DNA of 64,000 bases. Source: Tieghemostelium lacteum (taxonomy: Eukaryota). Location: the NCBI GenBank assembly GCA_001606155.1, contig LODT01000042.1, positions 207,758 to 271,757 of the forward strand, given 5' to 3'. The notes under the pieces were generated by a model. It saw only the letters and a program-made list of their open reading frames with translations. It did not search any database and had not been told where the DNA came from. How positions within the stretch are numbered: position 1 is the first letter of the stretch; every line of letters starts with the position of its first letter. The translations under genes and the position numbers were made by a program. This document shows positions 6,788-24,642 of this stretch, piece after piece.

Positions 6788-9214
6788 ATGTCAACAGATT
6801 CAAAATTTGACCAAGTTATAAACCTAGAGGATGACGATACTGAAGATGAAAAAGATATCAAAGATAATAATAATATACAACCATTAATACAAAATTGTAT
6901 TGAATTAGAGGATGGTGATACTGAAGATGAAAATGAGCTATCAAGTGATCAAAGTAGCTTCAGAGGTATCTCAAATATAACCTTAAATTCTCAAAAGAGT
7001 ATTATCTCTATAACAGATACTGACAGTCCCATAAAACAAAATAATAACAACTGCAATAGCAAGAGACCACATAGTGACATTAGTACTCCATTTAATACAT
7101 TGATATCACAACAACTAGATTGGATTCAAAGTGAAAAAGAAAATTTATTTGATGCAATATCCCAATATCAAAAGAAACATTCCCCGGTTATCCAGCCTCA
7201 AACACAGCAATCACAAAGTTCACTACAAATATCACCCAAACTGCAACCTCAACAATCACAAAATCCACTGCAGATATCACCAAAACTACAATCTCAACAA
7301 ATACAACAATCACAAAGTTCATTACAAATATCACCCAAACTGCAACCTCAACAATCCCAAAGCTCTCTACAAATTTCTCCCAAACAACAATCGCAGAATT
7401 CACAGAATTCACTACAAATATCACCTAAACCACAATCACAACAATCACAGTATTCACAGAATTCACTACAAATATCACCGAAACAACAATCTCAGCAGTA
7501 TAATATTATAAAAGATGAGGTTGAATTACCTAATAAGAAAGTAAAATTAACATCATCTGAACCATCATTACCAACTATAACAGGGAGTGGTTATAAGGTA
7601 ACCAAGTTTATTTCAAAATCAAAATCTGAATCAAATATTGGATATGATGGTGATGATGATTTTAAACCTCTGCTTTTGACTAGAGCTGCTGGAGTTAATC
7701 AACCTCCACCTAAGGATAAGGCAAAGTTAGACTATGTACCTAAATTTAAACAGTTGGTTTATGGTATACTCATACAACTGAGTAAGTTGCATAATGGTCC
7801 TAATGCATCTATTCGTAAATCAAATATAGTTAATGGTGCTCAGAAATACTCTGAAGTTGACCTGAGGGATCCTGATTATAGGGATAGAAGTAATGTAACT
7901 TCTGCGCTAGACCATCAGATGTATACTCAGGGTTTACTCACAGCTGGTAAGGAGTCTGAATCCTATATGCTGACTAATAAAGGTTTGATAATGGCTAGAC
8001 TTACAAGTCAGTATGAAGACATTTATCAACAGTTTATCAAACTGAATGAAATGAACACTGATTTCAAGCAAAATGAAATTGATATTGTTATAGATCAACA
8101 AGAGAAAATGTGTGAATCTATGGTTAGAAACTTTCAAGAGATTGGTGCGAACCCACATGTACATTCGTTACCTTCTGGTGACTTTATTCTAGTTAAAAGA
8201 GACTCGAGTAAACTTAATCCGAGAAATGGAAGAATTGATATAGACCAATGTAATTTCTATCCATTTCTCTTTGAGAGAAAAACTTGGGCTGATTTGGCAA
8301 AAACCCTAAAAGACAAAAGAATTGATACTCAAAAGACAAAAATGAAGGCACATCCTGCTATTCTCATGAGATTCTATATCATTGAAGGAAACATTGATCA
8401 CTTTTTCGAAGATGAGTGCTCTAAAGGTGAACTGAGAAGAGCTGTAGATGAAATCTCACTCGAACACGGCTTTAATATCATCAGATCGACATCTATTTGG
8501 GATACTTGTAAACAGCTATCAATGATTGCAAAGATGTTGAGTATGGACCCTTTGTTAAAGGAACTTTATAAGGTCATACCTTTCCTACCTTTTAAAAAAT
8601 CAGTAAATAGTGTGGCTAGAACAGCATCACAAGAAGTTCCTGTTAAGGTAAATACGCATGGTAGAGTGTTTCTTGAGTGGTCTGTAGACCAATTTCAAGA
8701 GTATGTGCTGAACAATACATATAGACAACATGTATCTACCATTTTGAAATCTGATAAGTCAGATAAGTTTATAAAGTTTCAGCAATATGAATTGTTCCAA
8801 AACAAGATTAGGATGAAACATAATAGACTGTTCAAACAGTACCTTTTACACCATCAAAAGTTTCCAAATGATCCTTATACTGATGGGTATAGGTCAATTA
8901 CCTCTTTAATCTGTCATCACCTTGACTTGGATATTCTAAGTTATAATCTATTACACATTCAATTGTCAACTGGATCCCTATTATACACTTCCCTAACTCA
9001 AGATGAAAAATACAATCTAGAGGCAAACTTTGATAAAGATGAAGAACTTTCATCTAAATTAATCCTATCCAAAGCCTTTAGTAAAAGACTTTTGTTAATG
9101 GCAAAATCAGTTCCGGATCCAAATTCCTATAACAACAACAATAATAACAATAATACTAATAATAACAATAGTAATAATAATAATAGTTCATCAATATTTA
9201 TAGATGAAGATTAA
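6788..9214 (+). CDS. mus81: MUS81-like structure-specific endonuclease (winged-helix + ERCC4 nuclease domain) with a long low-complexity N-terminal extension
   Basis: ERCC4 catalytic block GDFILV...FLFERKTWADL...DKRIDTQKTKMK...FYIIEGN matches the XPF/MUS81 motif GDx...ERKxxxDL...DGR..EQ...Y-vEE-G. An upstream winged-helix-like segment (VYGILIQLSKLHNGPNASIRKS...) fits MUS81 rather than EME1. The N-terminus carries SLQISPKxQ(P/S)QQSQ repeats. Confidence 0.6.
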   Translation: MSTDSKFDQVINLEDDDTEDEKDIKDNNNIQPLIQNCIELEDGDTEDENELSSDQSSFRGISNITLNSQKSIISITDTDSPIKQNNNNCNSKRPHSDISTPFNTLISQQLDWIQSEKENLFDAISQYQKKHSPVIQPQTQQSQSSLQISPKLQPQQSQNPLQISPKLQSQQIQQSQSSLQISPKLQPQQSQSSLQISPKQQSQNSQNSLQISPKPQSQQSQYSQNSLQISPKQQSQQYNIIKDEVELPNKKVKLTSSEPSLPTITGSGYKVTKFISKSKSESNIGYDGDDDFKPLLLTRAAGVNQPPPKDKAKLDYVPKFKQLVYGILIQLSKLHNGPNASIRKSNIVNGAQKYSEVDLRDPDYRDRSNVTSALDHQMYTQGLLTAGKESESYMLTNKGLIMARLTSQYEDIYQQFIKLNEMNTDFKQNEIDIVIDQQEKMCESMVRNFQEIGANPHVHSLPSGDFILVKRDSSKLNPRNGRIDIDQCNFYPFLFERKTWADLAKTLKDKRIDTQKTKMKAHPAILMRFYIIEGNIDHFFEDECSKGELRRAVDEISLEHGFNIIRSTSIWDTCKQLSMIAKMLSMDPLLKELYKVIPFLPFKKSVNSVARTASQEVPVKVNTHGRVFLEWSVDQFQEYVLNNTYRQHVSTILKSDKSDKFIKFQQYELFQNKIRMKHNRLFKQYLLHHQKFPNDPYTDGYRSITSLICHHLDLDILSYNLLHIQLSTGSLLYTSLTQDEKYNLEANFDKDEELSSKLILSKAFSKRLLLMAKSVPDPNSYNNNNNNNNTNNNNSNNNNSSSIFIDED
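7193..7497 (+). repeat. Coding tandem repeat (about 48-51 nt units encoding QSQSSLQISPKLQPQQS) inside the MUS81-like gene
   Basis: About six imperfect direct repeats visible in both the DNA and the translated protein (SLQISPKLQPQQSQN / PLQISPKLQSQQIQQSQS...). Confidence 0.75.
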
Positions 9215-9493: not shown

Positions 9494-11775
9494 ATGAGTC
9501 AGTCAAGGTTATCCAGATATACTAAAAACAGTAGTCAGAGTTTAATATTATTACTATTTGGATCTAAGGGAGTTAGAGCATGGTGTACGATATCATGTTT
9601 CTATTTATTACATAGTATCTCAGTAATTCAAATATCATTTTGGTTAATGTTATTCAGTACAATATATACAGTAATCTATGAACAACCATGGACAATTAAT
9701 TTTAATCAACTAAAATCAAATTTTTGGAAGAAATCAGTTTATCTAGCTATATTTAATGTTTTAACTATATTATCTTGGAATAATGCTGTAAAATATATTG
9801 GTCCTTTAGGGTATGTCTCTTATAGTATTAAATCATCATCATGACATTGACTAATTATATCAATAATATATAGAGCAATATTGTTATCAGATTACACCTA
9901 TATAACCTATCCAATGGTATTAAATACACTTTTTCAAGGTAACTTTTTAACAACTGATAATGTAGGTATAGAAATCACCATTAAGAAAAATCAATGTAAA
10001 TATGTATTAATATATATGTAAATTCAACAATAGTCAAGAGCATCAGTAATGTTAATTGTAGGTTATTTGTTAATTCCATTATTTGGAGGATCAATTAAAT
10101 ACATAATGTTAGACCCAATAGGAGCACCAGGTGCTACTAATACTGCTGCTGATAGAGCATTTACCTATTCACAATTACTATTTTGGGGATTTGTTTGTTT
10201 AATTTTCCATAACCTTTTGTTAATTTTCCAAAAGAATGTGTTAAAGAAATGGACAATGTCAGGTGGAAAGAGTAAATTACAATCATTTGGAATGGCTATT
10301 GCTACTGTCATTTTAATGTTACTATCATTTTTGCAAGAAGATTCACCTGCAGGTACCTATAGCGCATCATCTACAATCGCATTTGGACAAACTATACAAT
10401 TGATGATCATTGCATTCGTAACTATATTTTATAATCAAATTCTAGAGAAACTTTCTGAACAACAATTGGGTTTCCTAGTACTCAGTAAAGCATCTTTAAC
10501 CTCTTCTGTACTGTTCACTATCATTGCTGGTATATTTATTGGATTCCAATTTCATTTCTCTGCAGTTTTAATTCTAAGTTTTATTTTAATTTTAACTGGT
10601 ATGTATATTAATATTACTGAAATGTTTAATACACTATTATATAACATTTACTAATTAGTTTTTTATTTATAGCAATTCATATATTATTTTCAAAAACCAA
10701 TATTGATATGGACCATCCAATTTCATTTGGAACTGAAGTTGGTAATGTAAGTAGCGGAGGTTCAAGTCAAGAGAGCTCACAGGCTATGGTTATTATAAAA
10801 GATGTAATGAAACAGATTATAGAGAAACCAACATCCAGAAGAATATTTATATTTTTAATTGTAAACTTATTATTTATGTTTGTAGAGATGGCTTATGGTA
10901 TATGGACAAACAGTTTAGGTTTGATCACAGATGCATGTCATATGTTATTTGATGCAACTGCACTGTTTATTGCATTAATTGCTGAAGTGATATCTCAATG
11001 GAAACAAAATGACCAGTATTCATACGGGTACGGTAGAGTTCAGATTCTATCTGGTTTCGTGAATGGTATATTCTTGATTTTCATTGCAGTTACCATTCTA
11101 ATGGAATCCATTGAAAGACTCATGGAACCACCTGAAATCAATACTGACAAATTGCTTTTGGTCTCTGTATTGGGGTTCCTAGTGAACATGGTTGGAATAT
11201 TTTCATTCCACGGTGAAGGAGGTCACGGACATTCCCATGGAGGAGGAGGTGGACATTCACACGGTGGAGGTCACTCACACGGTGCTAAACCTGAGAGTAC
11301 TCCAGGTCAAGAACCCAAGAAGAGAAATGTAAACATTGATGGTGTATTTTTACATTTACTTGCAGATACATTGGGAAGTGTTGGTGTAATTATCAGTTCG
11401 TTGATTATTCAATTTTGGGGGTACACAATGGCTGATCCTATATGCTCACTCTGTATTAGTATATTGATTTTCCTCAGTGTCATTCCACTGATTAAAACCA
11501 CTGCAAAAACATTGTTGCAATGTACACCAGAGAAACTTGAAGGATCAGTGAACATGATTCAACAAGAGATCTCTCAGATTCCAGGTGTACTCAATCTGAT
11601 GAACTCTCATTTCTGGCAACACAATGACGATATCAATGTGGGTACTGTCAAGCTACTCATTGACAACTCTGCAGATTCACAACAAATTAAAAAATCTGTA
11701 TCGAAAATATTGAAATCACATGAGATTAGTGAGATTTCTGTAGAGTTAAATTATCAAGATCATCACCACAAATAA
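9494..11775 (+). CDS. Cation diffusion facilitator zinc transporter, ZnT5 (SLC30A5)-like with extended N-terminal TM region; exons about 9494..9824?, 10062?..10598, 10673..11775
   Basis: The last exon contains the full 6-TM CDF core (SRRIFIFLIVNLLFMFVEMAYGIWTNSLGLITDACHMLFDATALFIAL...GVFLHLLADTLGSVGVIISS...ADPICSL) and a His-rich loop (HGEGGHGHSHGGGGGHSHGGGHSHG). A clean phase-1 intron runs 10599..10672 (GTATGT...TTTATAG). The upstream ORFs 9494..9844 and 10049..10654 are multi-TM and align loosely to the ZnT5 N-terminus. The first intron position is uncertain. Confidence 0.75.
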
Positions 11776-12998: not shown

Positions 12999-14280
12999 TT
13001 ATTTAACAAAAGCTTCAGAAACATCTTTTAATAAAGCGACTCTAGTACGTGATAATTTTACACCCAAGATTGGAGCTGAATAAGAAGCCTTTTCTGCATT
13101 TAGTAGTTTTGCATAAAAGAAATCTTTAAAAGCTTGATTTTTCTTAAAGAGACCATTTTGAGGCATTGGTGGTCCAAATTGAGGTACAGTGTCTTTAGAA
13201 ACGACTGAAAGACGATAGTATCTCTGACCTGGATCAGATTCCAGAGTAGTGGCTTTAACCAATAAGACTACATGAACCTGACGAGAAGATATAGTGGTAG
13301 GTCGATAGATGGTATCACCATCTTGAAAAACTATAACAACAATGTCATTACCAATGTGTCTCTTTCTCTCTAGTTGTTGTTTATCCTTTTCGTTAAAAGG
13401 TAACATACAACTGACATGATACATCACCTCGTTGTTATTCCAACGTTGGTATATAGAATGGCTACCTGTTGTACCTGTTCTCACATCTAAACCTGCTCTG
13501 AATTGTGTCCAACCATTGAGAGGTACTCTCTCTCCAATGAAATCTAGAAATTCTTCAAATTCCGGACTGGTGTGTATATTGGAAAACATCTCATCCTCCT
13601 TGTTTTGTCCCTCCTGTGCATATAAAATTCCAAATTTAAATCCTTTGATTGTTTGCTTTTCCTCTAAATTCAATAGAGCCTGTGGGAGTCTTGGTTCTGT
13701 AACTAGTTTTAATCCACTGTAATTTGGTGCTACAGATTTCAATACATCAAATGGTGATGGTCCTGTTCTAAATAATCTTCTCCACCATGATGCTTTAATA
13801 TTTTCAACTGGTATTTTTATTCTTTGATTACCCTAAAAATATTAAAAAAAAAATAAATATATAAGTACATAGATTTTCTTTGAATAAACTCCCTACCCAT
13901 GTTCTTCCATCCTATTGTGTCACTTCTTATTTGTGTGGGTGTGTTGCTTTTTTGTTGGGAAAAAAAAAAAAAAATAGAGAGAAGATGGATAGGAGGAGTG
14001 TCTATAATGAGAAACCTACTGTTGATGTTCTAATGAGAGCTAAAAAGTTTTTACCACTCTTTTCCTGAACAATACTGATTCCAATTGGACCATTGGGAGC
14101 AGTTGGAATGGATAAAAAATTTAAATGTTCCTGGTTTAAAAAGTTGTCTCTATAGTAGATTGAATCATTATCTGAGAGATCAAATACATCATCCAAGAGA
14201 TTTGGTATATTACAATCGAATAATTGAGGCTGTCCATCCCCTAATCCCTCAATATTGTATCCAACTGCTGGTGCAATCAT
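12999..14280 (-). CDS. Rap GTPase-activating protein (RapGAP domain); exons 14020..14280 and 12999..13832
   Basis: Exon 1 (ORF 14002..14280) reads ...YRDNFLNQEHLNFLSIP...LALIRTST. GTAGGT donor, 187-nt T-rich intron, TTTTAG acceptor. Exon 2 contains the RapGAP core: GFKFGILYAQEGQ..EDEMFSN..SPEFEEFLDFIGERV.L.GW..FRAGLD..GTTG.HSIY..WNNNEVMYHVSCMLPF...QQLERKRHIGNDIVVIVFQDGD (compare Rap1GAP FKFGVIYQKLGQTSEEELF...RKRHIGNDIVAVVFQDE). Confidence 0.85.
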
Positions 14281-15760
14281 ATTCTGCTATACTATTATAT
14301 ATAACCTTGAAAATACAGTGTAAAGCAAAATTTTTAAAAAAATAAAAAAACTTTTTGATGTACTTTTTTTTTTTTTTTTCAAATACTTTGCAGCAATTAT
14401 TTGAATATAACTAAATTTTTTTTTTTTGCTTTGGCTATATCAAGATATATTTGTAATATTACACAACCTGTTTAGTGGATATAAACAAAGTTAATTAATG
14501 ATACTTTCTTGTAATTAATAAAAAAACAAAAGGAAAAAAACATTACAAAATTTTTAATCTATTTTTGAAGATTTTTTTTTTTTTTGTCGTTGTTGTTTGA
14601 AACTTAATCAAATCTAAAAATTTGTTGAAAAGTTGTGATGATGCACGATTATAAATAAACAGAGATAAAATCCTTAAATCTTTGAATCTATAAAACAAAT
14701 GTACAAAGGCTCTCTTTCTATGATATTTAATGAATGTTCAATAAAATTAAAATAGATAGAAATACTTGGTGTGTTTTGTTTTTTTATAAAATTAAATATA
14801 AATAAATTAAACTATTATAATAATTGTGTTTTTACTTTTTGTTGAAATTCTTCTCTTCCTTCACTCTCTTATTAATTTTAGGATTGGAGTTTGCAACTAC
14901 TGCTGTTTTCAATTTAGTAATTATAATAACAATATAAAATTTTGAATCTTTAGCATAAAGTAAAGTAAAGTAAAAAAAATAAAAACTATAACCAAACACA
15001 AAACAACAACAACATAATAATATGTATATATAACAAAAAAAATTAATTCAAAATAAATCAGTAAATAATCATAACAGATACATGTAATTATATGAATAAT
15101 TTTTTTAAAAAAATTTTAAACAATTAAATACCCCACCCACACCTCCAACACACTATTTCCATCACATTATATATTTTTCGATGTGAAAATTTACTGAGTT
15201 TAGATAAACTGTGATAGGGATTGTCCCCTTATTAGATATTAAAAGATTTCAAAATCAAATGAATTTAATTTTTAATTTCGATGCAATTTCAAGATTAGAT
15301 TCAATATTTCAATCTCCACTAGTGTCTCTGTGTGTGAAATATATGAGTATTCTCATTGCTATTATGTAATATCAGATTTTAAATTATATTAAAAATACAC
15401 TATAGAGATACAATCATTAATGATAATCTCCAAACTAATAATCACAAGTGAGACCCATAAATACTATCGAAATCAAAATTAATTTTTCCGAAATTTGAGT
15501 TTACTACATTTTTTTTCTTTAGGTCAATGGAGAATGAAGAGTTGAGATCTCTTTTATTTATTGCACTACAAATTTTGCAATAGATTATAAAGAAAAATGA
15601 CTTTTCTTTGTCATTATAAAAAAATCTGACTCCACCTCACTTTAAAGTGTCAAAGAAAGTCAAAAAGAAAAAAATGGAATTCTATTATTACAAAAAGATA
15701 GGATGATTGTAGGGTGTGGGAGTTTTGGGTTGTTGTGTTTTTTTTTAGTTTAGGAATTCT

Positions 15761-17251
15761 TTAGAATTGAATTTGTGATAATAGTACAACAATTTCATCA
15801 ATAACAGGTATAAGATGACCATCTGTAATCTTTTGTCCATTATTTTGGAGGATTGAAAAGAAGATGATAGGTTGATTGGCTGGTGGATCTTGAAGGTTTT
15901 GTGAAATGAGACCAGAGAGAGAGTTGACACCCATCATCGACCCTGTTTTTGCGTGTACTACACCTTGGGCTGGTGTGCCTATGAATCTGTCGGAGAGGGT
16001 ACCTGAGACACCACCAACAGGTAGATAGGAAAGGTAGTCGTGGTCAGGGTCACCAGCATTAAAGTAAATGGATTCAATAAGTTCAATGAATGCTTGAGGT
16101 GTGAAATAGTTGATTCTACTGAGTCCTGATCCATCAGCTTGATCAAAGTAGTCAGTGTTGATATTGAGAATTTCAACAATCGAATAGAGACCTTTAAGCC
16201 ATGTTTGTGTTCCTTCTGGATAGGAGTTGTAATTGTTGCTTCCGAGAAGTCTGAGGAAGGTTTCAGCATAGAGGTTATCAGAGTTCAATAGAGTGTAGTT
16301 TAACATCTCGGAAAGTGGTGGTGAGATGGTTACGTAAGATCGGTTTTCAGTGGTGTTACACAGACCATAGGCATACTCGTTAACGTATAAACCTTGCTCT
16401 TTCAACATTGCACCAAAAACTGTGAAAAAGTATTGGTCTGGGTCGAGAATGGGTATTTGGAATATATACTCACCGTCAACTCTGTAAGGAAGGTTTCCAT
16501 TAATATACACAACACCACTTGTCATTCTGAAACTCAGAGAAATGGTGTTATTTGAGCTCTCATCTGTTGTGACTGCATTGTTTACGTAGGTTAGATAGGT
16601 CTCTTCACCTGGGTTTTGGAAGCTTACAGTAGGTGCTTGTCCTAGATTTGGAGAAGGTGTCAATATGATATTAATGGTGTTCTCATTGATTATCAATGGG
16701 GTGGGAAGAGCACCGTAGGTTGATGTCAAATCTTCAAACATCCAAGTAGTGGGGATATTAAAGTTGTCATCGACGTAGAATGATGTATCTAAAATCAAAG
16801 ATCCAACTGAAGCTGCTTTTGAGAAAAACTGTGCAGCATTTGCAAGCTGCTGAGTGGTGATGGATGGGTCACCAAGTCCTTTCACACATATGTGATCCAA
16901 TTCAACCCCAGGCACAAATAATTCCTGGGTGTAAAATGGTGTCTCTATTGTATAGTCTTCTCCAAAGGTATAGAATATCGATGAGGTTGTAAATAGTTTA
17001 GTGTTACTAGCAGGTGTAAACATTTGATTTTCATTGAAATTGTATATATTCACAGGACCTCCGTTTCCAGAAGGATTATAGATATCTATAACCAAACCCC
17101 ATTCAACACCATAGCAATCATAGTTTGAACAATTGCTCAATATCCCATTAATAAGTGATGGAATCTCACTTGGTGAATAGGATTCTGATTGAACTAATCC
17201 TACTGCTACTAGTACCAATACTATCACCCAAACTTTAAAAATATTCTTCAT
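15761..17251 (-). CDS. Secreted D-alanyl-D-alanine carboxypeptidase/endopeptidase, peptidase S13 (PBP4/DacB-like), bacterial-type, intronless
   Basis: 496-aa uninterrupted ORF. N-terminal signal peptide MKNIFKVWVIVLVLVAVGLVQS. All three PBP active-site motifs are present in order: SxxK (PASNTKLFTT), SDN (LLNSDNLYAETF), KTG (VHAKTGSMMGVNS). Many NxS/T sequons. Flanked by intron-containing eukaryotic genes. Confidence 0.85.
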   Translation of the reverse strand: MKNIFKVWVIVLVLVAVGLVQSESYSPSEIPSLINGILSNCSNYDCYGVEWGLVIDIYNPSGNGGPVNIYNFNENQMFTPASNTKLFTTSSIFYTFGEDYTIETPFYTQELFVPGVELDHICVKGLGDPSITTQQLANAAQFFSKAASVGSLILDTSFYVDDNFNIPTTWMFEDLTSTYGALPTPLIINENTINIILTPSPNLGQAPTVSFQNPGEETYLTYVNNAVTTDESSNNTISLSFRMTSGVVYINGNLPYRVDGEYIFQIPILDPDQYFFTVFGAMLKEQGLYVNEYAYGLCNTTENRSYVTISPPLSEMLNYTLLNSDNLYAETFLRLLGSNNYNSYPEGTQTWLKGLYSIVEILNINTDYFDQADGSGLSRINYFTPQAFIELIESIYFNAGDPDHDYLSYLPVGGVSGTLSDRFIGTPAQGVVHAKTGSMMGVNSLSGLISQNLQDPPANQPIIFFSILQNNGQKITDGHLIPVIDEIVVLLSQIQF

Positions 17252-17706
17252 TATATAACCTAATTTTTTTTTTTCCTATATTTTCTGTTGATTCGAGTGT
17301 GGGAGTGAGAGAAAGATAAAAACTGAAATCAATTAGTGTTTGAGTTTTTCAGATTGTTTATACAATAAATATAAATAAAAAAAAATTAGATAATTCTTTA
17401 TACTGTAAAATAGGATTTGTAAAAATATCTCAAGTCTTGAAATTTTCTATTCAATTTTCAAAAGATTCTACCCCCATCAAACAGACATTCTATAGACACA
17501 CAAGCGGATTAAAACAACATCTATCAGAGAATCTCATAACTGAATCAGATTAAAATATTCATAATTTTTTTTTTACTTAAAGTAGTAATTAATGTGATTG
17601 GTATTTAAATAAAAAAAACGGAATATATACCTTTTTGATTAGTGGTATATATTTTGATATATAGATCAAACTATGTACAAAAGTGTTTTTATGGTGTCAT
17701 TTGAAA

Positions 17707-19369
17707 TTACATATTCTTTCTCTTTCTGATTATACCTTGTTTGACCAACATTTCATAAGCAATCTTACTCATAACCTCACCATTCTCATCTTCGTATTCT
17801 TCGTCTCTGTCTGATTTAAATGTTTTTTCATTATTTTGCTTTTTGATTTTAGCCCATAGTTCCAGTGCATCTTTGATCTTTGTAATCTCATGGAAGTGTA
17901 TAGTATTAGGTACACCAATACATGACATACCATATGAATGTCTTGATTCCTATAATTTATAAAATTATTAGTAAACTAGTTGATTATTATAATCAAAAAC
18001 CCCACATAAAAACACACATACCTGAAAATGTTTTTCATAAGTTTTTCTACCCCAGTATGATTGGTTACCACAAATCTCACATTTGTACTCCACACCCAAT
18101 TCATTAAGTTTATAGACCCAATAAGGAATGGGCTTACCAGAAAAGTCAACTGGATAGTTGGCAATCTTAAGTTTAGTAGGTTCATCCACAGTATCCATAT
18201 CATCAATATTGATTTCTTCATCTTCAACAGGTTCTTCCTCGACATTAATCTCAGTGGCACTTCTTGACTGTTTACGTAAAACCATTTCTTTAGTTGCATG
18301 TGTTTGATCAGACAACAATTCACCCAACTTTGATATCTTAAATTCCAAAAATGTAGTTGGTTTCCTCTGTTTCAAATTCAGGTAACTATGACTGTCTCTA
18401 TCCGATGTCATTTTAGTTTGGTTGAGTTTATGTTTCTTTCCTCCTAAATGACCTTTAAAAACACTTTCAGAACTAAACATTTTCCTACATGCCTTACAAT
18501 ACAATGGTGAAGATGTATCACCACCATCTTCATCATCATCTTTCCTATCTCCTTCAGCTTCCATTTTAGGATCATATTCATGTTTATCCCATTTCTCGTT
18601 AAATTCTTTTTCATATCTCTCCAAATTTTGATTTAGATCAAAAAGTGGTTGTGTTCGTTCTAGAAATGATATCAAATACTGATACAATTTCTCTAGATAT
18701 TCTCTATAGACTGGATATTTCATTCTCACTATATTTGCATACTGAAACTCATAAAATTTACTAAGGTAACTTGTATAATCTATTCTGTTTTGTAGAAATG
18801 GTAGATTCAAATATACATCATATATTTCATTTAAATCTAAATATTTTCCAAAATGTTCATTACCTAGAAATGGTACTGTAGCTATCATCCAACCAACTTA
18901 TTAATATCTACATCTATATCATTATCAAAAGTTGTTAACCTAATACATACCATTAAAATATAAAGAGCTATTATTTCTTTGATCTTTTAAATCAGGGTAC
19001 TTTCTATGATACTCTTTAATCTCTTTCAGTTTACCATAAAATGATCCAAATATATCTTTACCTGACATTGATTCTAATTCATTTTTTCTTGATCTATTTA
19101 ATATATATTAATAATGTTAGTTTATATTCATTTACAAGGCTATTCAATATTTAAAGTGTAAATACCTACTCATCATCATCATTGTAGATCTTTTGTAACT
19201 CTTTTGCACAATCAATTGAGGATTCTAAATAATGATTAACTCGGTGATTTTGTAAAATTGTTTCTTTGAAATTTGGAGGTGGTATGTTCATTTCATTTTC
19301 AATTAGTAGTTCATATCTTTCAATATTTTCATGAAGATTTCTGGTTCTTTCTAATAATGTAGATGACAT
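17707..19369 (-). CDS. sf3a3: Splicing factor 3a subunit 3 (SF3a60/PRP9); 4 exons about 19170..19369, 18951..19093, 18022..18896, 17707..17949
   Basis: Exon 1 reads MSSTLLERTRNLHENIERYELL... (SF3A3 N-terminus). Exon 2 reads SRKNELESMSGKDIFGSFYGKLKEIKEYHRKYPDL. Exon 3 contains the matrin-type C2H2 finger YCKACRKMFSSESVFKGHLGGKKH and ...KPIPYWVYKLNELGVEYKCEICGNQSYWGRKTYEKHFQ|GTATGT. The last exon reads ESRHSYGMSCIGVPNTIHFHEITKIKDALELWAKIK (human [36 protein letters not shown]). Confidence 0.85.
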
Positions 19370-20110: not shown

Positions 20111-23100
20111 TTATGATTGTTGTTGTTGTGAAGGTTGTTCCTTTTTACCAGACATTTTCCAATAGAATTCAGCAGATTGTGTATTACCCAATTGATGTAA
20201 CATATTACCATACTCTTTAAAAATGATTTGAGTAAGTTGTTGAAATGTAAAGTCACTTGAGGTACCTTGGTTACTCTCATAGCTTGATATTAAATCACTC
20301 TGTTCAAATACATGATCAAAAGTGTCATTGAATACTGAGTTTTCCAAACCTGCCATCAACAATAATGATGCTATATCATACTGTTGATTCTCATATAACA
20401 AATTTACAACATTTCTAAAATCACCTAGACTTAAGAGTAAAGAAATTGCAAATTGGAAGCTCTTAGATGCTACAGTGCTACAAAGATGTTGTGACTGACT
20501 CTGGGTTCCAATAGAGCTCTTGGACTTGTACAAGAGATTAACTACCCATGCTCTATAGACCACAAGCTGCTCTTCTTCAGATAACTTAATTTTTGCTAGT
20601 TTTGAAGCATCATACCATCTATCAGCAGATTGCAAGTATTTACAGGCATCAAATGACTTTCCAATCATACAAAGGAACTGAACACCTTCGTCTACTTTAC
20701 CAACTGCAATTAGATTCTCAGCAATCAATTTTGTAGTGGATTGATAGTAATCCATGGATATACTCGCACTTATAACTGATGCTTTCAAAGCTCTGTTATA
20801 GAAATCAGGGTTATCAGGTGTGGTGTCAAGTAATAGATTAACAGCTCTAGGTGTACGACCTAGCAATATATTACGTTCAATTAACTTTTTAGACAGCTCT
20901 TGATCGGGTTTCTTCTTTTCGTGGTAGTCTGTTTTCTCCAGTTCCTGGTTTCTAAAAACATTGGAATCTAGTAGTATGTCATAGTACCCTGGTAGGAGGG
21001 ATTCATGGGTATTGGTATTTGCAAGTCCTCCACTAGTTCCTCTGAGTATTGTAGAGTCATTTAAAGATGCATATAAAGATGGTGAATTGGATCCAGATGG
21101 ACTATAACCACTTCCAATACCATCAGTACTGGATTCAAGGGACTGTAGTTGCGAGGCTACTGAAGAAAATACTTGTGAGACTGAAAGTGGATTGGTATTC
21201 ATAGTACTACTAGACAAAGATTGGGTACTTGGATTACTCTGTTGCTGAGATGAACTTAGTGATGGGAAAAATGAAATAGAAGATGACAATGTACTTCCTT
21301 GTTGTGGTATATTATTTGTGTTACTATTGTTATTATTATTTGGGTTGTTTTTAACTGGTGTTGTTGGTGGAGATAATTGTGAAGTTGATGTATTTTGTAG
21401 TTGTGATTTTTGTAGACCAAATCCAAATAAAGAGGATAATGGTTTTTTGAGGAGATTAGAAGCGGAGGAAGATGATGTGGTTGTAGCTGTTGGTTGTGGA
21501 GGTGGGTTATTGAGGATTGGTGATGTTAGAATATTACTACTGGAACTATTTACAGGAGGTGAGTTTATAGTTAGTGGATTGAATGAGAAGCCACCTCCTG
21601 TTGATGATGTGTTACCGCTGGTATATGGTGTGTTTTGAGTGCTGGTGTTGGTACTATTATTGCCACTAATGGGGTTGATAACTGGTGTTGGTTGTTGAGA
21701 TGTTGTAGTAGATGTTGTTGGAACTTGTTCATAGTTTCTAATTGGTACTCCAGGTAGGTTATAATAGATGTTAACCAACTCACTGTTATAGAATATCTGG
21801 TCTGATAAGGAATAGTCAAGTTTCTTTTGTTTTTGGTATTTGGAAAGAGAGTTGATGGCAACTCTCCAAAACTCAATTTCTTTCTGGTCACCAAAGAATT
21901 GTGCGACGACTAATGAACTTTCAGCAGTAGGACGCTGTTCAAGGTCATTGAGGATATTCTCATCTATCAGTGCTAGTAATTTGTTATTTTGTTCCTTTAA
22001 TGAGCCTTCTTGAGATTTGTTTAGTTGAGAGGAAGTCAATGAAGAGTTATTAAACAATCTGTAATTGAGTAACAGGTTTTTCAATTGTGTACATTGGTCA
22101 ACTGGCAAAAGAAGTGGGGAATAGAGGTAATTGGTACCGTCTGGTGTCTGAGGGTATGGTTGGAACTGGTATCTACTGTTGGTCACTGATAGTGATTGAT
22201 CTAGAATTCTTATAGATTGGTCATTGGTTACTATGATTGGGTGTTGGTCTTGTGCCCATTCGAGATCCGCAGCTTTGATTTCACGTTCCATTAAATAGGT
22301 GCTTAAAGTGAGACGTTGGTTGAGGTTGAGGTCCCATATTCCAAACTCTCCACTTTGGAACATGACAAGAATCTCTGAACTTGATGCGGAGGGGCTAAAC
22401 CTAATCTTCTTAATAGGACCTCTGTGGGTGGATATAGAATGCAGTTTCTTCTTTACAAGATTCCATGAGTTTATATTACCATTTTGGTCACCAGAGACTA
22501 GAAACTCTCTTTTATAGGCTAAACATATATGTACCTGGTTACCAAGATCTGCATTGACTTCTTGCAAAGTCACCGAATTTGCCTCGATTGTACATTGCTT
22601 GATAGAGCCATCTTGCAGTAAAAATGTAAATTGTTCTTTTTGTTCATATTTTGTGGAATCTGGTGACAGTTCAACTTCAGAGTCTACCAAAGGTGGCAAC
22701 CACTCTAAACCCACTATATGAGTAAATGGTTTAAATGATCTGAGACATGTGAATTTCTTTGTTTCCCATAACTCAAATGGCCTGTCTTTCATCAACAGCA
22801 CCAAGAATCTTCTGGAATACGATAATCTTATACCCCGTATATATGAAGGTTCAGTGCCAGAAACCTTTCTAAACTCTCTTATTCTTCCAGACCTGAAATC
22901 CACCGATGCTATAAAATTGAGAAAACTATTCTTTTCCTGTTCTTCAAAAGAGTGGCATAGTACACGTCCTGGTGACAACCACTTTATCCCTAGTACTGCT
23001 CTGTTCCATACAAATATCTCTTTTTGAACTTTCAAATTGGACATGTTTATAATCTGTATTGTACCATTACTCGTACCTATTGCAACTAAACATACCATAC

Positions 23101-24642
23101 CTTTATTAAAGAATGGATAGACACTCACTGATGTCACTGGTGACGATGCAGTCTCCAATAGTCCTGATGTTGCTAGTTTAATAACACCATTCAATGCAAT
23201 TATAGATGGTTGTGTAAGTCTGGGTGAAAATAAACTACAACTATCACTAGTCAGTTCAGATATAAAATCCCATTTCCATCTATATTAAAGTACATTTTAA
23301 AAGATATTAATACATTGGTTTCTGATGTATAAAAGGGGATACATTACATTATGCCATCAGAGGTTATAGACAGTAGAGTTTGGTCAAAGAATGGATGGTT
23401 TATGATAGAGATGATGGGTTGACCTTTCTTTTTTGATTTCTTTTGGTAGTGTATTAGATCTGAGGAAGATAACTGATCGTAGTTGTGGGTATTGAATGAC
23501 TCTATTTTACGTATCCAAGAGGTTATAGAACTGTCTTCGTGGAGTGAAAACATTAAATTTGGGTTATCTTTACCAATGATAACATGTTGGAATGAAGGTT
23601 TGTTTCTGTCTAATTGAAGTGATCCAAAGAGTTGATTAGTAGTGCTATCAAATACATAGAGGTCTCTTAACATGACTAGGTATATGAGATTTTTGGAATT
23701 TGGTGAGATAATCATTTGAATGAATTCAGAAGAGGTTGATAAAGAGGTGTTTGGTTGTGTACCTTGACCACTTTGTAATTGTATACCTGAACTTTGAGAT
23801 AAACCTCCACCTCCCATTACTGACCCCTGTTGAGACTGTATCTGCTGTTGCAGTGATTGTACCTGCAACCATTGTGCAAGTGTCTGAGAATGGTCAGTGT
23901 TCAGTAGAGTATTCAGATTACCACCTTTACTAGGTAGAACCCTAAACTTGAATTCCAAATGAGGCAATTGTTGTGGTGTTTGTGCTATAGTAGGTATATC
24001 ATCCATCTGATATACACACCCAAACTGAGTGCAAATGTATAACTGGTTTGATTTGAATGGGTCAAATTGAAGTGATTTTGCAGGTGTGAATTCAGGGATA
24101 TCCTTTCTCCACAGTCTGGTGGAATTTGATACATTCAGACACTGAATACTGTTACCATACAAAACCAATAGTAGATTACTATCTTCCGTATGCCAACACA
24201 TATCCATAATCTGCAGATTCTGTTGATTCTGTATATACTGATACTGATCGTTTCTCTTCACACCAGTAGCATTCATATCACTATTGGTGAGATAGTTCAT
24301 TACCTGACCTTCCAAAACATTCCATATCAAAATGATACCATTTATATCTGCACTTGCTAATCTAATTATATTATTAACGCTACCACTACTATTACTATTA
24401 CTATTACTACTATCCAATGTAGATAGTATATTATTTGAAAGTACATCATTTGACCACTTTACAATAGAAACATTATATTTATGTTCACAAAGTGTCTGTA
24501 TTACATTTAAATGATTAGGATCTACAATCACAATATGTGAATTACTACCATAGGCTAATAAATTCTGCCAATGCCAATCAATTGCACTTTTGTTGTCTTT
24601 GGCATTCAATTTACCAGGGAATATTTTTGGTTGTAATTTCAT
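20111..24642 (-). CDS. WD-repeat protein 11 (WDR11/BRWD2)-like, large WD40 protein with Ser/Thr/Asn-rich linker; exons 23348..24642 and 20111..23279
   Basis: The N-terminus MKLQPKIFPGKLNAKDNKSAIDWHWQNLLAYGSNSHIVIVDPN matches the WDR11 N-terminus (KAAVDWGWQGLIAYGCHSLVVVID). ORF 23344..24642 joins ORF 20111..23194 through a 68-nt intron (GTAATG...AATATAG, phase 2) with continuous WD40-like sequence. Multiple WD-like blocks. Confidence 0.7.

Follow-up and report, generated by a model that had tools for sequence, protein, structure and literature searches.

A bacterial-type class C1 penicillin-binding protein gene in the dictyostelid Tieghemostelium lacteum

How does an amoeba that makes no peptidoglycan come to encode a complete penicillin-binding protein (PBP), and what might it do with one? 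The question is raised by a locus in a 64,000-nucleotide stretch of T. lacteum DNA (contig LODT01000042.1, positions 207,758 to 271,757 of the forward strand), referred to here as the window and numbered from its first letter. On its minus strand, at 15761..17251, the ORF listing contains a complete, intronless CDS for a class C1 PBP of peptidase family S13, with an ATG start, 496 codons specifying 496 amino acids and a TAA stop. The protein is 100% identical to the deposited entry "putative peptidase S13 [Tieghemostelium lacteum]", and alignment and tree placement identify the CDS as orthologous to Dictyostelium discoideum pscA (DDB_G0271902). The core of the finding is already known: the pscA case has been in the literature since 2003–2011, and the T. 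lacteum protein had been annotated before. Added here is the apparent position of the gene within a wider, mainly amoebozoan eukaryotic clade, whose nearest named bacterial relatives are cyanobacterial in the comparisons made.

The best explanation, which we consider somewhat likelier than an even chance, is that the locus is a nuclear, intronless and transcribed pscA orthologue encoding a soluble class C1 PBP of the secretory pathway, that its donor was a bacterium carrying a PBP4 of the cyanobacterial type, and that its product digests prey peptidoglycan. The family, the intact catalytic apparatus, the predicted three-domain fold, genome integration, host codon usage, vertical inheritance and purifying selection are directly supported.

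Family, catalytic motifs and predicted fold

The first-pass annotation had read a 496-residue intronless frame with the motifs S-N-T-K, S-D-N and K-T-G in order, and this reading is borne out on the minus strand, with the motifs at S82, S324 and K435. The SxxK motif (S82-N83-T84-K85; 16997..17008, minus strand), located by reading the sequence and by alignment to PBP4a and E. coli PBP4, occurs only once in the entire protein. S82 is predicted to be the acylated nucleophile and K85 the general base; in the family alignment the serine is present in 175 and the lysine in 177 of 180 sequences. The SxN motif (S324-D325-N326; 16274..16282, minus strand) has its serine in 172/180 and its asparagine in 176/180 of the same sequences. 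The KTG motif (K435-T436-G437; 15941..15949, minus strand), assigned by alignment with its counterparts in PBP4a and E. coli PBP4, belongs to the β3 strand bordering the active site. All three line up with the corresponding catalytic residues of 1w5d and 2ex2 and are kept in at least 95% of the 180 family sequences. In three-domain class C1 enzymes, the penicillin-binding domain is interrupted between SxxK and SxN by domains II and III (PMC4604126). The 242 residues that separate the two motifs here leave room for these defining insertions.

Curated models agree with the bacterial-type PBP4/S13 identity first proposed for the protein. It scores 208.5 bits against PF02113 Peptidase_S13 (cutoff 22.8, E 2e-61, profile positions 31–424 of 444) and 182.2 bits against the NCBIfam PBP4 equivalog TIGR00666 (cutoff 107.8). 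The enterobacterial DacB equivalog (NF008322/PRK11113) gives 140.8 bits, below its cutoff of 527. By these scores the protein is PBP4-type and not a DacB equivalog, and the name DacB applies only loosely. Sequence matches in the PDB are led by PBP4a (4e-29), E. coli PBP4 (1e-24) and R39 (5e-23).

The AlphaFold (AF2) model of the protein has a pLDDT of 91 and a pTM of 0.89. In Foldseek comparisons it superposes on 1w5d and 1w79 over ∼487 columns, with TM scores of 0.79–0.81 normalized by query and 0.86 by target; for E. coli PBP4 the values are 0.69–0.73 and 0.77–0.79. As modeled, the protein thus has the three-domain architecture of class C1. Profile scores, ordered motifs, fold and an export-signal-like N-terminus (by heuristic) with no membrane anchor all place it in this family. 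Two other identities were considered and rejected. An S12 serine β-lactamase-like or LACTB identity does not apply, PF02113 being the sole Pfam match at E ≤ 0.01 and the Dictyostelium LACTB homologues being other proteins. The truncated architecture of the Bdellovibrio enzymes Bd3459 and Bd0816 fits poorly (TM 0.47–0.62, 14%–16% identity, rmsd 8–11 Å), and the housekeeping PBP4s match far better.

A candidate substrate pocket can also be traced. Asp155, Phe160, Arg361 and Gln422 of E. coli PBP4 are residues that we take to form the subsite for the diaminopimelate (DAP) end of the stem peptide; the assignment is said to come from Kishida et al. in 2006. In a HMMER alignment to 2ex2, the equivalent residues span 16115..16732 on the minus strand: D174 for Asp155 (16730–16732), Y179 for Phe160 (16715–16717) and R379 for Arg361 (16115–16117). 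The aspartate is found in 166/180, the tyrosine in 144/180 and the arginine in 162/180 family sequences, and these three of the four putative pocket positions, together with all the catalytic residues, are kept in 11/11 dictyostelids. At the fourth, the Gln422 equivalent, the T. lacteum protein has M440 instead of Gln, Ser or Thr, a substitution that counts against a DAP-selective enzyme.

Descent within and beyond the dictyostelids

Orthologues were found in 11 dictyostelids, at 41%–52% identity to the T. lacteum protein (43%–54% as BLASTP local identity), and none of the species compared has a disrupted reading frame. In neighbor-joining trees on Kimura distances with 200 bootstraps, the dictyostelid sequences form a clade in 200/200 replicates (100%). 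The order of branches is group 2 (Acytostelium, Heterostelium, Synstelium), P0008, T. lacteum, then P. violaceum with group 4. On this evidence the gene tree is congruent with the species tree, and the gene has been inherited vertically through Dictyostelia. Among three group-4 species dN/dS is 0.16–0.24, indicating purifying selection, and in the same three PEPCK is the upstream neighbor. No conserved synteny was seen among T. lacteum (Rap_GAP, SF3a60), D. discoideum (PEPCK) and Heterostelium. Synteny is generally poor between dictyostelid groups, so the lack of a shared neighborhood is no argument against orthology.

D. discoideum belongs to group 4 and T. lacteum to group 3. PscA and the T. 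lacteum protein are 52% identical (54% over the BLASTP local alignment), fall in the same length class and are each encoded by a single exon. They share a signal-peptide-like N-terminus, an NCSxxxC loop, the catalytic motifs, the sequon equivalent to N318 and membership of the 100%-bootstrap clade. PscA differs in having SNN for SDN and threonine for methionine at position 440. The primary paper on pscA, reportedly by Yasukawa in 2003, is said to describe both cloning and enzyme activity. In later literature PscA is cited as an active penicillin-sensitive carboxypeptidase, cloned in 2003, and it is termed "a functional C1-PBP" in an organism that phagocytoses bacteria (PMC4604126). The activity is reported here through secondary citation. 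The first-pass description of the biochemistry as essentially uncharacterised does not hold, given a D. discoideum orthologue reported as an active penicillin-sensitive peptidase. Its statement that Peptidase S13 appears on published dictyostelid HGT lists was correct: pscA ("penicillin-sensitive carboxypeptidase") is listed among the HGT candidates under this Pfam name.

Homologues outside Dictyostelia come from Ceratiomyxa, Nematostelium, Vermamoeba, Flabellula and Pelomyxa. In Pelomyxa the gene is interrupted by 6 GT-AG introns and has eukaryotic neighbors, and 4/4 further cluster members that were checked adjoin eukaryote-specific genes. An MMETSP marine protist and environmental eukaryotes also belong to the cluster. 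Beyond this small, mainly amoebozoan clade the relatives are solely bacterial. In 98% of bootstraps, the named Amoebozoa and the named bacteria fall on opposite sides of a split. Dictyostelid proteins score 100–130 bits more on a profile of the other eukaryotes than on any bacterial profile, and in leave-one-out comparisons the eukaryotic profile is ahead by 60–140 bits. The dictyostelid genes are nested in a eukaryote-only clade with other Amoebozoa, and the transfer is therefore probably older than Dictyostelia. The BLASTP and phylogeny check proposed at the outset thus returned a dictyostelid clade at 100% bootstrap, cyanobacterial relatives among the named bacteria, and a transfer that was probably not specific to dictyostelids.

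All bacterial matches that bear names are cyanobacterial, at 31%–34% identity. In a species-balanced genome scan the best 80/80 loci were cyanobacterial, in a search with one peptide pattern that may favor cyanobacteria. A pair of N- and C-terminal cysteines is common to cyanobacteria and the less derived eukaryotes (Vermamoeba, Pelomyxa, Nematostelium, Ceratiomyxa). For dictyostelid sequences taken alone, the cyanobacterial-type profile does no better than that of another bacterial group (332 versus 357 bits for the T. lacteum protein). The case for a cyanobacterial donor therefore rests largely on the eukaryotic members that have diverged less and on the cysteine pair.

A further character separates the eukaryotic cluster. 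The sequon N318-Y-T320 (16292..16300, minus strand), identified by comparison across the cluster, precedes the serine of SxN by six residues. N318-x-T320 is present in 11/11 dictyostelids and in 22/29 other members of the eukaryotic cluster (33/40 in all), compared with 8/140 bacterial-type sequences, and in these alignments it is a real marker specific to the eukaryotic clade.

We tentatively suggest, at a little under an even chance, that a single, very ancient transfer brought a cyanobacterial-type PBP4 into a phagotroph that was an early amoebozoan or even predated that group. The gene would have been kept for about a billion years in scattered bacterivores (Dictyostelia, Ceratiomyxa, Variosea, Archamoebae, Tubulinea and some protists) and remodeled for the endomembrane system. 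Such remodeling could include the signal peptide, the N-glycan site by the active site, the acidic surface, the Pelomyxa introns and the replacement of a disulfide in dictyostelids. A less probable account, one that still deserves weight, is that similar bacteria donated the gene more than once (to Dictyostelia, Archamoebae, Tubulinea, Variosea and others), or that it spread from one eukaryote to another. The distribution is patchy, with no Acanthamoeba, Entamoeba or Physarum sequence among the best matches. Branching within the eukaryotic cluster departs from the amoebozoan species tree, and its internal nodes are poorly supported (31%, for example, for Ceratiomyxa+P0011+Dictyostelia). The presence of the marine protist and the environmental eukaryotes in the cluster points the same way. 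Against repeated transfer, every cluster member that is named or could be checked is eukaryotic, and none of the identified bacteria falls among them; the 98% bootstrap split, the 60–140-bit advantage of the eukaryotic profile and the 33/40 versus 8/140 distribution of the sequon weigh in the same direction.

Secretory features and a proposed role

The proposal of a signal peptide, also made in the first-pass annotation, is upheld by a heuristic analysis (a Kyte-Doolittle scan with the −3/−1 rule). Residues 1–22 (17186..17251, minus strand) resemble a signal peptide of n/h/c type, consisting of the n-region MKNIFK, a 14-residue hydrophobic h-region VWVIVLVLVAVGLV and a c-region QS followed by ES. 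Cleavage is predicted near S22|E23, with G18|L19 as an alternative. In the AF2 model residues 2–17 form a detached helix of lower confidence, and an equivalent hydrophobic N-terminus is found in all eukaryotic homologues. A hydropathy scan of the protein revealed no second hydrophobic 19-mer, and it has no retention or membrane signal. The N-glycosylation sequons had been called numerous. Five are observed, and shuffling the mature sequence gives an expectation of 6.8 ± 2.3, which invalidates the argument from their number.

The mature T. lacteum protein has a calculated pI of ∼4.05; the dictyostelid proteins range from 4.05 to 4.49, and the cyanobacterial median is 9.1. Alignment also places a Cys41...Cys46 pair in an NCSxxxC(Y/F)G loop (17114..17131, minus strand), which is restricted to Dictyostelia and Ceratiomyxa. 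The terminal cysteine pair of the cyanobacterial type is lost in dictyostelids, and the T. lacteum protein has S26 and F496 at those positions. The Cys41/Cys46 loop coincides with this loss in dictyostelids.

In our interpretation, the enzyme most likely digests prey peptidoglycan of the DAP type within the secretory/lysosomal pathway. The signal peptide would direct the protein into the ER and be cleaved near residue 22, and the protein may be N-glycosylated, the conserved N318 being the best candidate site. The very acidic mature enzyme (pI ∼4.05) would then reach lysosomes or phagosomes, or be secreted. There, the enzyme is expected to work as both a DD-carboxypeptidase and a DD-endopeptidase: Ser82 would attack D-Ala-D-Ala ends and DAP-D-Ala cross-bridges in the peptidoglycan of the prey and form an acyl-enzyme intermediate. 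β-Lactams block this same chemistry. The conserved D174/Y179/R379 pocket may select stem peptides of the DAP type (Gram-negative or Bacillus-type), and the un-crosslinking of the sacculus, alongside lysozymes, would help to kill and digest the bacteria. Bacterial PBP4s usually act at near-neutral or alkaline pH, which counts against activity in an acidic phagolysosome.

The same enzyme may instead be used outside the cell or for sensing, being secreted as a weapon of predation or defense, comparable to the Bdellovibrio PBP4-type endopeptidases, that weakens or lyses bacteria nearby, or trimming muropeptides that serve the amoeba as cues for detecting prey or controlling symbionts. A predicted signal peptide with no retention or membrane signal would suit such a use, as would the structural likeness to Bdellovibrio Bd3459/Bd0816 (TM about 0.5–0.6). 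We regard it as improbable: outside a phagosome, the Gram-negative outer membrane would keep a 50-kDa enzyme off the sacculus, the model has the full three-domain housekeeping form rather than the truncated, open-cleft Bdellovibrio form (14%–16% identity, rmsd 8–11 Å), and a pI of ∼4 suits acidic compartments at least equally well.

Less probable again is neofunctionalization, in which the PBP fold would have been recruited to act on an endogenous substrate other than peptidoglycan, as happened with mitochondrial LACTB in animals. Candidates would be a peptide of the developmental matrix or spore coat, a peptide containing D-amino acids, or β-lactam detoxification. The function of PscA has been called unknown in the literature, and the LACTB family is an earlier eukaryotic co-option of the fold. 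Several traits are also derived relative to the bacterial relatives, namely the lost terminal cysteine pair, the Cys41/Cys46 loop, M440 and the acidic shift. Set against this, the three motifs and the putative D/Y/R pocket are kept throughout the dictyostelids and in almost all copies from other eukaryotes, and the penicillin-sensitive carboxypeptidase activity reported for PscA is the ancestral chemistry. A role specific to development is further disfavored because the gene also persists in phagotrophic amoebae that live singly and do not undergo dictyostelid development. The earlier assertion that eukaryotes have no substrate of their own for such an enzyme was too broad, as glaucophyte plastids make peptidoglycan; for Amoebozoa it is reasonable.

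Genomic setting and comparison with known systems

The locus lies, as first described, between RapGAP and SF3a60 genes. Downstream is an exon of a Rap/ran-GAP gene of eukaryotic signaling (12999..13742, minus strand; PF02145 Rap_GAP, E 3.5e-58), and upstream are the 3′ exons of the spliceosome gene SF3a60/Prp9 (17709..18888, minus strand), recognized by the SF3a60_Prp9_C profile. Positions 1–47 of that profile match in the ORF 17968–18888 and positions 49–120 in the next exon, in another frame. Resumption of the C-terminal domain after a short gap indicates a short intron near 17904–17967, which splits SF3a60. WDR11 and ERCC4 are also neighbors, and the intergenic flanks are AT-rich and of dictyostelid type (GC 0.20–0.29). 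Host-like codon usage, another claim of the first reading, was confirmed: relative synonymous codon usage (RSCU) correlates with that of neighboring host genes at r 0.86, compared with a mean of 0.24 for cyanobacterial homologue genes. GC3 is 0.35 in the gene and 0.23–0.31 in its neighbors.

Three independent Logan assemblies (ERR3252993/4/5; 1580–1645 bp) match the window without gaps at 100% identity, from 15710/15711/15722 to 17290/17354/17355. They are gene-sized contigs with recurring ends and were read as RNA-seq for that reason; being colinear with the genome, they indicate that the gene has no intron. The transcript unit would extend over 15710..17355 (minus strand), with a ∼103-nt 5′UTR, the CDS and a ∼50-nt 3′UTR. 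The gene is a genuine nuclear gene of the host, its transcription being read from these transcript-like assemblies. A prey or symbiont ORF misassembled among amoeba genes might be suspected from an overwhelmingly bacterial family (12,159 matches, mostly prokaryote-type), the missing introns and the slightly higher GC3, but is effectively refuted, its chance being close to nil, by the AT-rich flanks and eukaryotic genes on either side (SF3a60 intron-split), the host-like RSCU, a top bacterial identity of just 31%–34%, orthologues on large contigs in at least nine other dictyostelid genomes with a species-tree-like topology, the dN/dS of 0.16–0.24, and the predicted eukaryote-style signal peptide and clade-specific sequon. 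The claim of an integrated, domesticated HGT gene therefore stands, with eukaryotic neighbors, host codons, transcript-like assemblies, a dictyostelid clade, purifying selection and otherwise bacterial relatives.

The locus provides clean and strong evidence that a bacterivorous eukaryote has domesticated a bacterial cell-wall enzyme; it is no new kind of system. The eukaryote-wide clade, the cyanobacterial-type source, the sequon beside SxN, the shift in pI from ∼9 to ∼4 and the putative DAP pocket provide handles on the role of PscA in vivo. If there was a single ancient transfer, the gene is relevant to the way in which early phagotrophs acquired bacterial enzymes for their lysosomes, and few "prey-digesting" genes of bacterial origin still present in eukaryotes would be older.

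The class C1 PBPs of known structure (PBP4a of B. subtilis, 1w5d; R39 of Actinomadura, 1w79; PBP4/DacB of E. coli, 2ex2; and 3a3d of H. influenzae) have the three-domain fold in common with the T. lacteum protein over its full length. For the E. coli and H. influenzae enzymes the TM scores to the model are 0.69–0.73 by query and 0.75–0.79 by target. Aligned SxxK/SxN/KTG motifs, the putative DAP-subsite residues and an N-terminal export signal are shared as well, at an identity of only 21%–26% in the superpositions. In PBP4a a lysine crown on domain II tethers the enzyme to membranes. The T. lacteum protein is very acidic and contains only 9 Lys and 6 Arg, and thus could not form one. It also differs from the bacterial enzymes in being encoded by a eukaryote that makes no peptidoglycan.

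Among bacteria, the PBP4-type enzymes of cyanobacteria (Nostocales, Oscillatoriales, Coleofasciculales and others) were the nearest named relatives by score in every search. They share a C-terminal helix motif with the T. lacteum protein ("IDEIVVLLAQLQRC" versus "VIDEIVVLLSQIQF") but are mostly basic (median pI 9.1), contain exactly two cysteines and lack the N318 sequon (8/140 among bacterial-type sequences). The closest functional analogy is provided by Bd3459 and Bd0816 of Bdellovibrio bacteriovorus (3v39, 5cer), PBP4-family enzymes that a predator turns against prey peptidoglycan. Their match to the model is significant but weaker (Foldseek E about 1e-14), and they are deployed by a bacterial predator in the prey periplasm, whereas the T. 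lacteum enzyme is proposed to act through the eukaryotic endomembrane system.

The tick Dae2 amidases, bacterial peptidoglycan hydrolases domesticated by a eukaryote, and the LACTB (S12) homologues of Dictyostelium and animals represent the same concept, in which a eukaryote that encounters bacteria retains one of their cell-wall enzymes. Both the amidases and LACTB (S12) belong to families other than S13. LACTB is mitochondrial and alphaproteobacterial ancestry is attributed to it, in contrast to the secretory-pathway, cyanobacterial-type protein described here. In the paper on LACTB, bacterivores such as Dictyostelium were argued to retain PBP-fold enzymes that digest peptidoglycan.

The S13 gene and its genomic setting

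The S13 gene corresponds to an open reading frame of 496 codons, from ATG to TAA, at 15761..17251 on the minus strand. Its product is 100% identical to the NCBI entry "putative peptidase S13 [Tieghemostelium lacteum]", which is recorded on a 541-kb contig. The window is therefore nuclear DNA of this species, formerly named Dictyostelium lacteum. Upon translation, with the codons also inspected by eye, the three motifs that the first-pass annotation had placed in order within this frame were recovered: the only SxxK of the protein (S82-N-T-K85), S-D-N at residues 324-326 and K-T-G at residues 435-437. Almost the entire Pfam profile PF02113 (Peptidase_S13) matches the protein, with an E value of 2e-61. 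With the NCBIfam model TIGR00666 ("PBP4") the protein reaches 182 bits (cutoff, 108), but with the enterobacterial DacB equivalog NF008322 it stays at 141 (cutoff, 527). The earlier label "PBP4 / DacB" is therefore accurate as to PBP4 type but only loosely so as to DacB.

The closest solved structures are Bacillus subtilis PBP4a (E 4e-29), Escherichia coli PBP4 (1e-24) and the Actinomadura R39 DD-peptidase (5e-23), and the three motifs align onto the catalytic motifs of all of them. An AlphaFold2 model calculated from a 42-sequence alignment has a mean pLDDT of 91 and a pTM of 0.89. Its full-length Foldseek matches in the PDB include PBP4a and R39, with TM-scores of 0.79–0.81 by query and 0.86 by target, and the PBP4 of E. 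coli and Haemophilus influenzae, with 0.69–0.73 by query and 0.75–0.79 by target. Class-C1 penicillin-binding proteins (PBPs) are defined by two additional domains that interrupt the penicillin-binding domain between SxxK and SxN (PMC4604126). The Foldseek matches, together with a spacing of 242 residues between these two motifs, place the protein within this structural definition. The S13 gene is under selection and apparently transcribed, and its product is an intact class-C1 PBP with an N-terminus of export type.

The gene was said to lie between RapGAP and SF3a60 genes, and Pfam scans of the window ORFs agree. A Rap_GAP exon is found downstream on the same strand (E 3.5e-58) and a spliceosomal SF3a60/Prp9 gene upstream. 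The C-terminal domain of the latter is split over two reading frames (profile positions 1-47, then 49-120), and the gene therefore contains an intron. In the same scans, an ERCC4-domain nuclease at 6788-9214 (+), a cation-efflux (CDF) transporter at 10708-11775 (+) and a WDR11-like beta-propeller/TPR protein at 20111-23194 (-) are ordinary eukaryotic genes. The GC content of intergenic DNA around the S13 gene falls to 0.20–0.29. Two further ORFs, of 96 aa at 15979-16269 (-) and 115 aa at 17976-18323 (-), overlap the S13 and SF3a60 coding sequences but run in different frames; the mechanical ORF listing accounts for them, and nothing marks them as genes.

The codon usage was confirmed to be host-like: relative synonymous codon usage (RSCU) of the S13 gene correlates with that of its pooled neighbors at r = 0.86, within the range of neighbor against neighbor (0.84–0.93), compared with −0.08 to 0.51 (mean 0.24) against ten cyanobacterial homolog genes. 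This correlation replaced GC content, which is uninformative on contamination because Nostocales genes are likewise AT-rich at third positions (GC3 0.24–0.40). At 0.35, GC3 of the S13 gene is a little higher than in five neighboring ORFs (0.23–0.31). Codons ending in C are favored in highly expressed dictyostelid genes, and the raised value may reflect high expression rather than foreign origin. In three independent Logan assemblies (ERR3252993-5), contigs of 1580–1645 bp with recurring ends are 100% identical to, and gap-free against, window 15710-17355. Such contigs would be expected from an unspliced mRNA with UTRs of ∼100 nt (5′) and ∼50 nt (3′), the libraries being presumed to derive from RNA-seq. 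Bacterial contamination or a chimeric contig is effectively excluded by the eukaryotic neighbors, the host RSCU and these colinear transcript-like assemblies.

Dictyostelid orthologs and the age of the transfer

The D. discoideum ortholog, pscA, appears as "Peptidase S13", DDB_G0271902, "Penicillin-sensitive carboxypeptidase" among 16 candidate bacterial horizontal gene transfers (HGTs) of that species, with an ortholog in D. purpureum (Sucgang et al., 2011, PMC3188802). This bears out the claim of an HGT-derived gene from a family on published dictyostelid lists. A penicillin-sensitive carboxypeptidase activity of the D. discoideum ortholog was reported in 2003, according to a secondary citation; the earlier wording "essentially uncharacterised" therefore suits the biological role but not the activity. 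Earlier publications cover the gene family, its inferred horizontal transfer and its enzymatic activity, and the T. lacteum protein itself already carries an annotation. The first-pass annotation of a real, HGT-derived gene was correct and careful.

Orthologs were found in D. purpureum, P. violaceum, D. discoideum, D. citrinum, D. dimigraforme, Heterostelium album, Acytostelium subglobosum, Synstelium polycarpum and one further EukProt species, with 41%–52% identity to the T. lacteum protein (43%–54% in local BLASTP alignments). In neighbor-joining trees of 180 sequences, the dictyostelid clade is recovered in 200/200 bootstraps, and its inner order is that of the accepted dictyostelid groups. 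A single exon likewise makes up the gene in D. discoideum and in Heterostelium, and dN/dS between three closely related species of group 4 is 0.16–0.24. In D. discoideum, D. citrinum and D. dimigraforme (contigs L004, L089 and L090), all of group 4, PEPCK is the immediate upstream neighbor of pscA, and the downstream neighbor is a large gene on the opposite strand (about 1300–1500 aa, no Pfam domain). Neither the T. lacteum window nor Heterostelium shows this arrangement, and synteny was dropped as evidence that genes of different dictyostelid groups are orthologous.

Two of the dictyostelid gene models are irregular. The S. polycarpum protein (P0121, EukProt) is 1335 aa long, with the S13 domain only at 853-1328. 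The hydrophobic stretch LPVLIIGIIVAALFLV precedes this domain and aligns with the signal peptides of other dictyostelid proteins. The model is probably a predicted fusion of a Cys-rich extracellular protein (1-835) with the pscA ortholog (836-1335) and not a real multidomain protein. In P0008, from another EukProt dictyostelid, the equivalent of query residues 229-263 is missing near 229-230, and the match is therefore split into two segments, likely because an intron was predicted by mistake where the gene has none.

An exhaustive HMMER search returned 12,159 hits. When the top representatives were identified, the nearest relatives outside the dictyostelids proved to be eukaryotic: Ceratiomyxa fruticulosa, Nematostelium gracile, Vermamoeba vermiformis, Flabellula baltica, Pelomyxa schiedti and two EukProt transcriptomes. 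One further relative we take, from its UniProt accession series, to be derived from MMETSP. The Pelomyxa gene (10001-11755 of the contig L006, JAHLWZ010000912.1) lies on a 49.7-kb contig among Sec20, PDEase, DAGAT and eIF2D genes. It carries six very short GT-AG introns (41–102 nt), whereas none is present in the dictyostelid copies examined. For unlabeled members of the cluster, origin was judged by adjoining genes where contigs were available, and 4/4 such members adjoin eukaryote-specific genes (Atg4, Brix and prenylcysteine lyase; PHD fingers; Tdp1; F-box and FYVE). Two of these contigs, L007 (JGI metagenome 3300056625, 73.8 kb) and L008 (Logan SRR27131879, 25 kb), are compact and apparently intron-poor eukaryotic sequences; the S13 gene adjoins Atg4, Brix, OsmC and P450-reductase genes in the former and PHD-finger genes in the latter. 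OsmC is likewise on the dictyostelid HGT candidate list (PMC3188802).

An exact clade of all Amoebozoa has 0% bootstrap support because unnamed sequences interleave, and this measure was replaced by separability from named bacteria and by profile scoring. In 98% of bootstraps, a split sets all named Amoebozoa apart from all named cyanobacteria and from Brevibacillus. Profile scoring, which does not depend on a tree, agrees: for the dictyostelid proteins, a profile made solely from the remaining eukaryotic members beats any bacterial-group profile by 100–130 bits, and leave-one-out scoring of the other eukaryotes favors the eukaryotic profile by 60–140 bits. The eukaryotic nearest relatives, the separability and the profile scores therefore indicate that the transfer is probably older than Dictyostelia, as judged from neighbor-joining trees with weak internal support within the cluster and a patchy distribution among eukaryotes. 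These last two features would also suit multiple transfers or eukaryote-to-eukaryote spread, which are possible because some cluster members are of unclear affiliation. In a limited literature search, no prior report of a pan-amoebozoan PBP4 was found, which does not prove that none exists.

Donor and cysteine pattern

Whether the search started from a dictyostelid protein or from a profile built on the remaining eukaryotic members, all named bacterial matches are cyanobacterial. In a one-genome-per-species prokaryote collection, the best 80 of 590 confirmed loci are all from cyanobacteria, of many orders, in a scan with the single pattern S[ND]NLYAEx[LF]L that may favor this phylum. Cyanobacterial PBP4 proteins contain exactly two cysteines, one near the mature N-terminus ("ICPSQL") and the other at the C-terminus ("LAQLQRC"), presumably forming a disulfide staple shared with the less derived eukaryotic copies. 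Both are kept in Vermamoeba, Pelomyxa, Nematostelium and Ceratiomyxa, and neither is present in Brevibacillus or in a block of 36 unnamed bacterial sequences. This pattern was read in the alignment columns of residues 26 and 496, across the proteins P0015-P0120, P0025, P0131, P0013 and P0124. In dictyostelids both positions are replaced (S26 and F496 in T. lacteum), and an "NCSxxxC" loop (Cys41/Cys46) is found instead. Ceratiomyxa has the loop as well as the terminal pair, plausibly an intermediate state. With dictyostelid sequences alone, a cyanobacterial-type profile performs no better than the unnamed bacterial block, and the case for a cyanobacterial-type donor is therefore moderate, not strong. 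A separate set of bacterial proteins of about 900–970 aa (P0122-P0130, P0136, P0142 and P0146), the named members of which are from Brevibacillus, contains a tandem pair of complete S13/PBP4 modules, and either half aligns with the whole query at E of about 1e-50.

Glycosylation, active-site pocket and proposed role

Beyond the published findings, interest lies in the broader eukaryotic clade, with its cyanobacterial-type signature, and in the function in vivo. The "numerous" N-glycosylation sequons earlier taken as a sign of domestication are not evidence: five N-x-S/T are present, below the 6.8 ± 2.3 expected by shuffling, and positional conservation was used instead. One sequon, N318-x-T320, lies six residues ahead of the SxN serine and occurs in 11/11 dictyostelids and 22/29 other members of the eukaryotic cluster but in only 8/140 bacterial-type sequences. 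Conservation of those at N40 and N299 is confined to dictyostelids, most of which have them.

The residues of the diaminopimelate (DAP)-end subsite of E. coli PBP4 we take to be Asp155, Phe160, Arg361 and Gln422; a literature search for them yielded docking papers only. In an alignment to 2ex2, the equivalents are D174, Y179, R379 and M440, the first three of which are kept in all dictyostelids and most of the 180 family sequences. The mature T. lacteum protein has a pI of 4.05 (dictyostelids, 4.05–4.49), compared with a cyanobacterial median of 9.1. From sequence, this shift and the retained D174/Y179/R379 pocket would fit an enzyme that acts on Gram-negative or Bacillus-type prey inside an acidic compartment of the endomembrane system.

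The protein would be translocated into the ER, cleaved and N-glycosylated, and would then reach lysosomes or phagosomes or be secreted. There it may hydrolyze prey peptidoglycan at D-Ala-D-Ala termini and at DAP-D-Ala cross-links, with an acyl-enzyme formed at Ser82. The earlier statement that eukaryotes have no substrate of their own is fair for Amoebozoa but too sweeping in general, because glaucophyte plastids contain peptidoglycan and dac genes. Rival readings are that the enzyme serves as an extracellular weapon or in sensing, or that it has undergone neofunctionalization. For the proposed hydrolysis of prey peptidoglycan, the PBP4-type endopeptidases of predatory Bdellovibrio are structurally far poorer matches to the S13 protein in Foldseek but provide a useful functional analogy.
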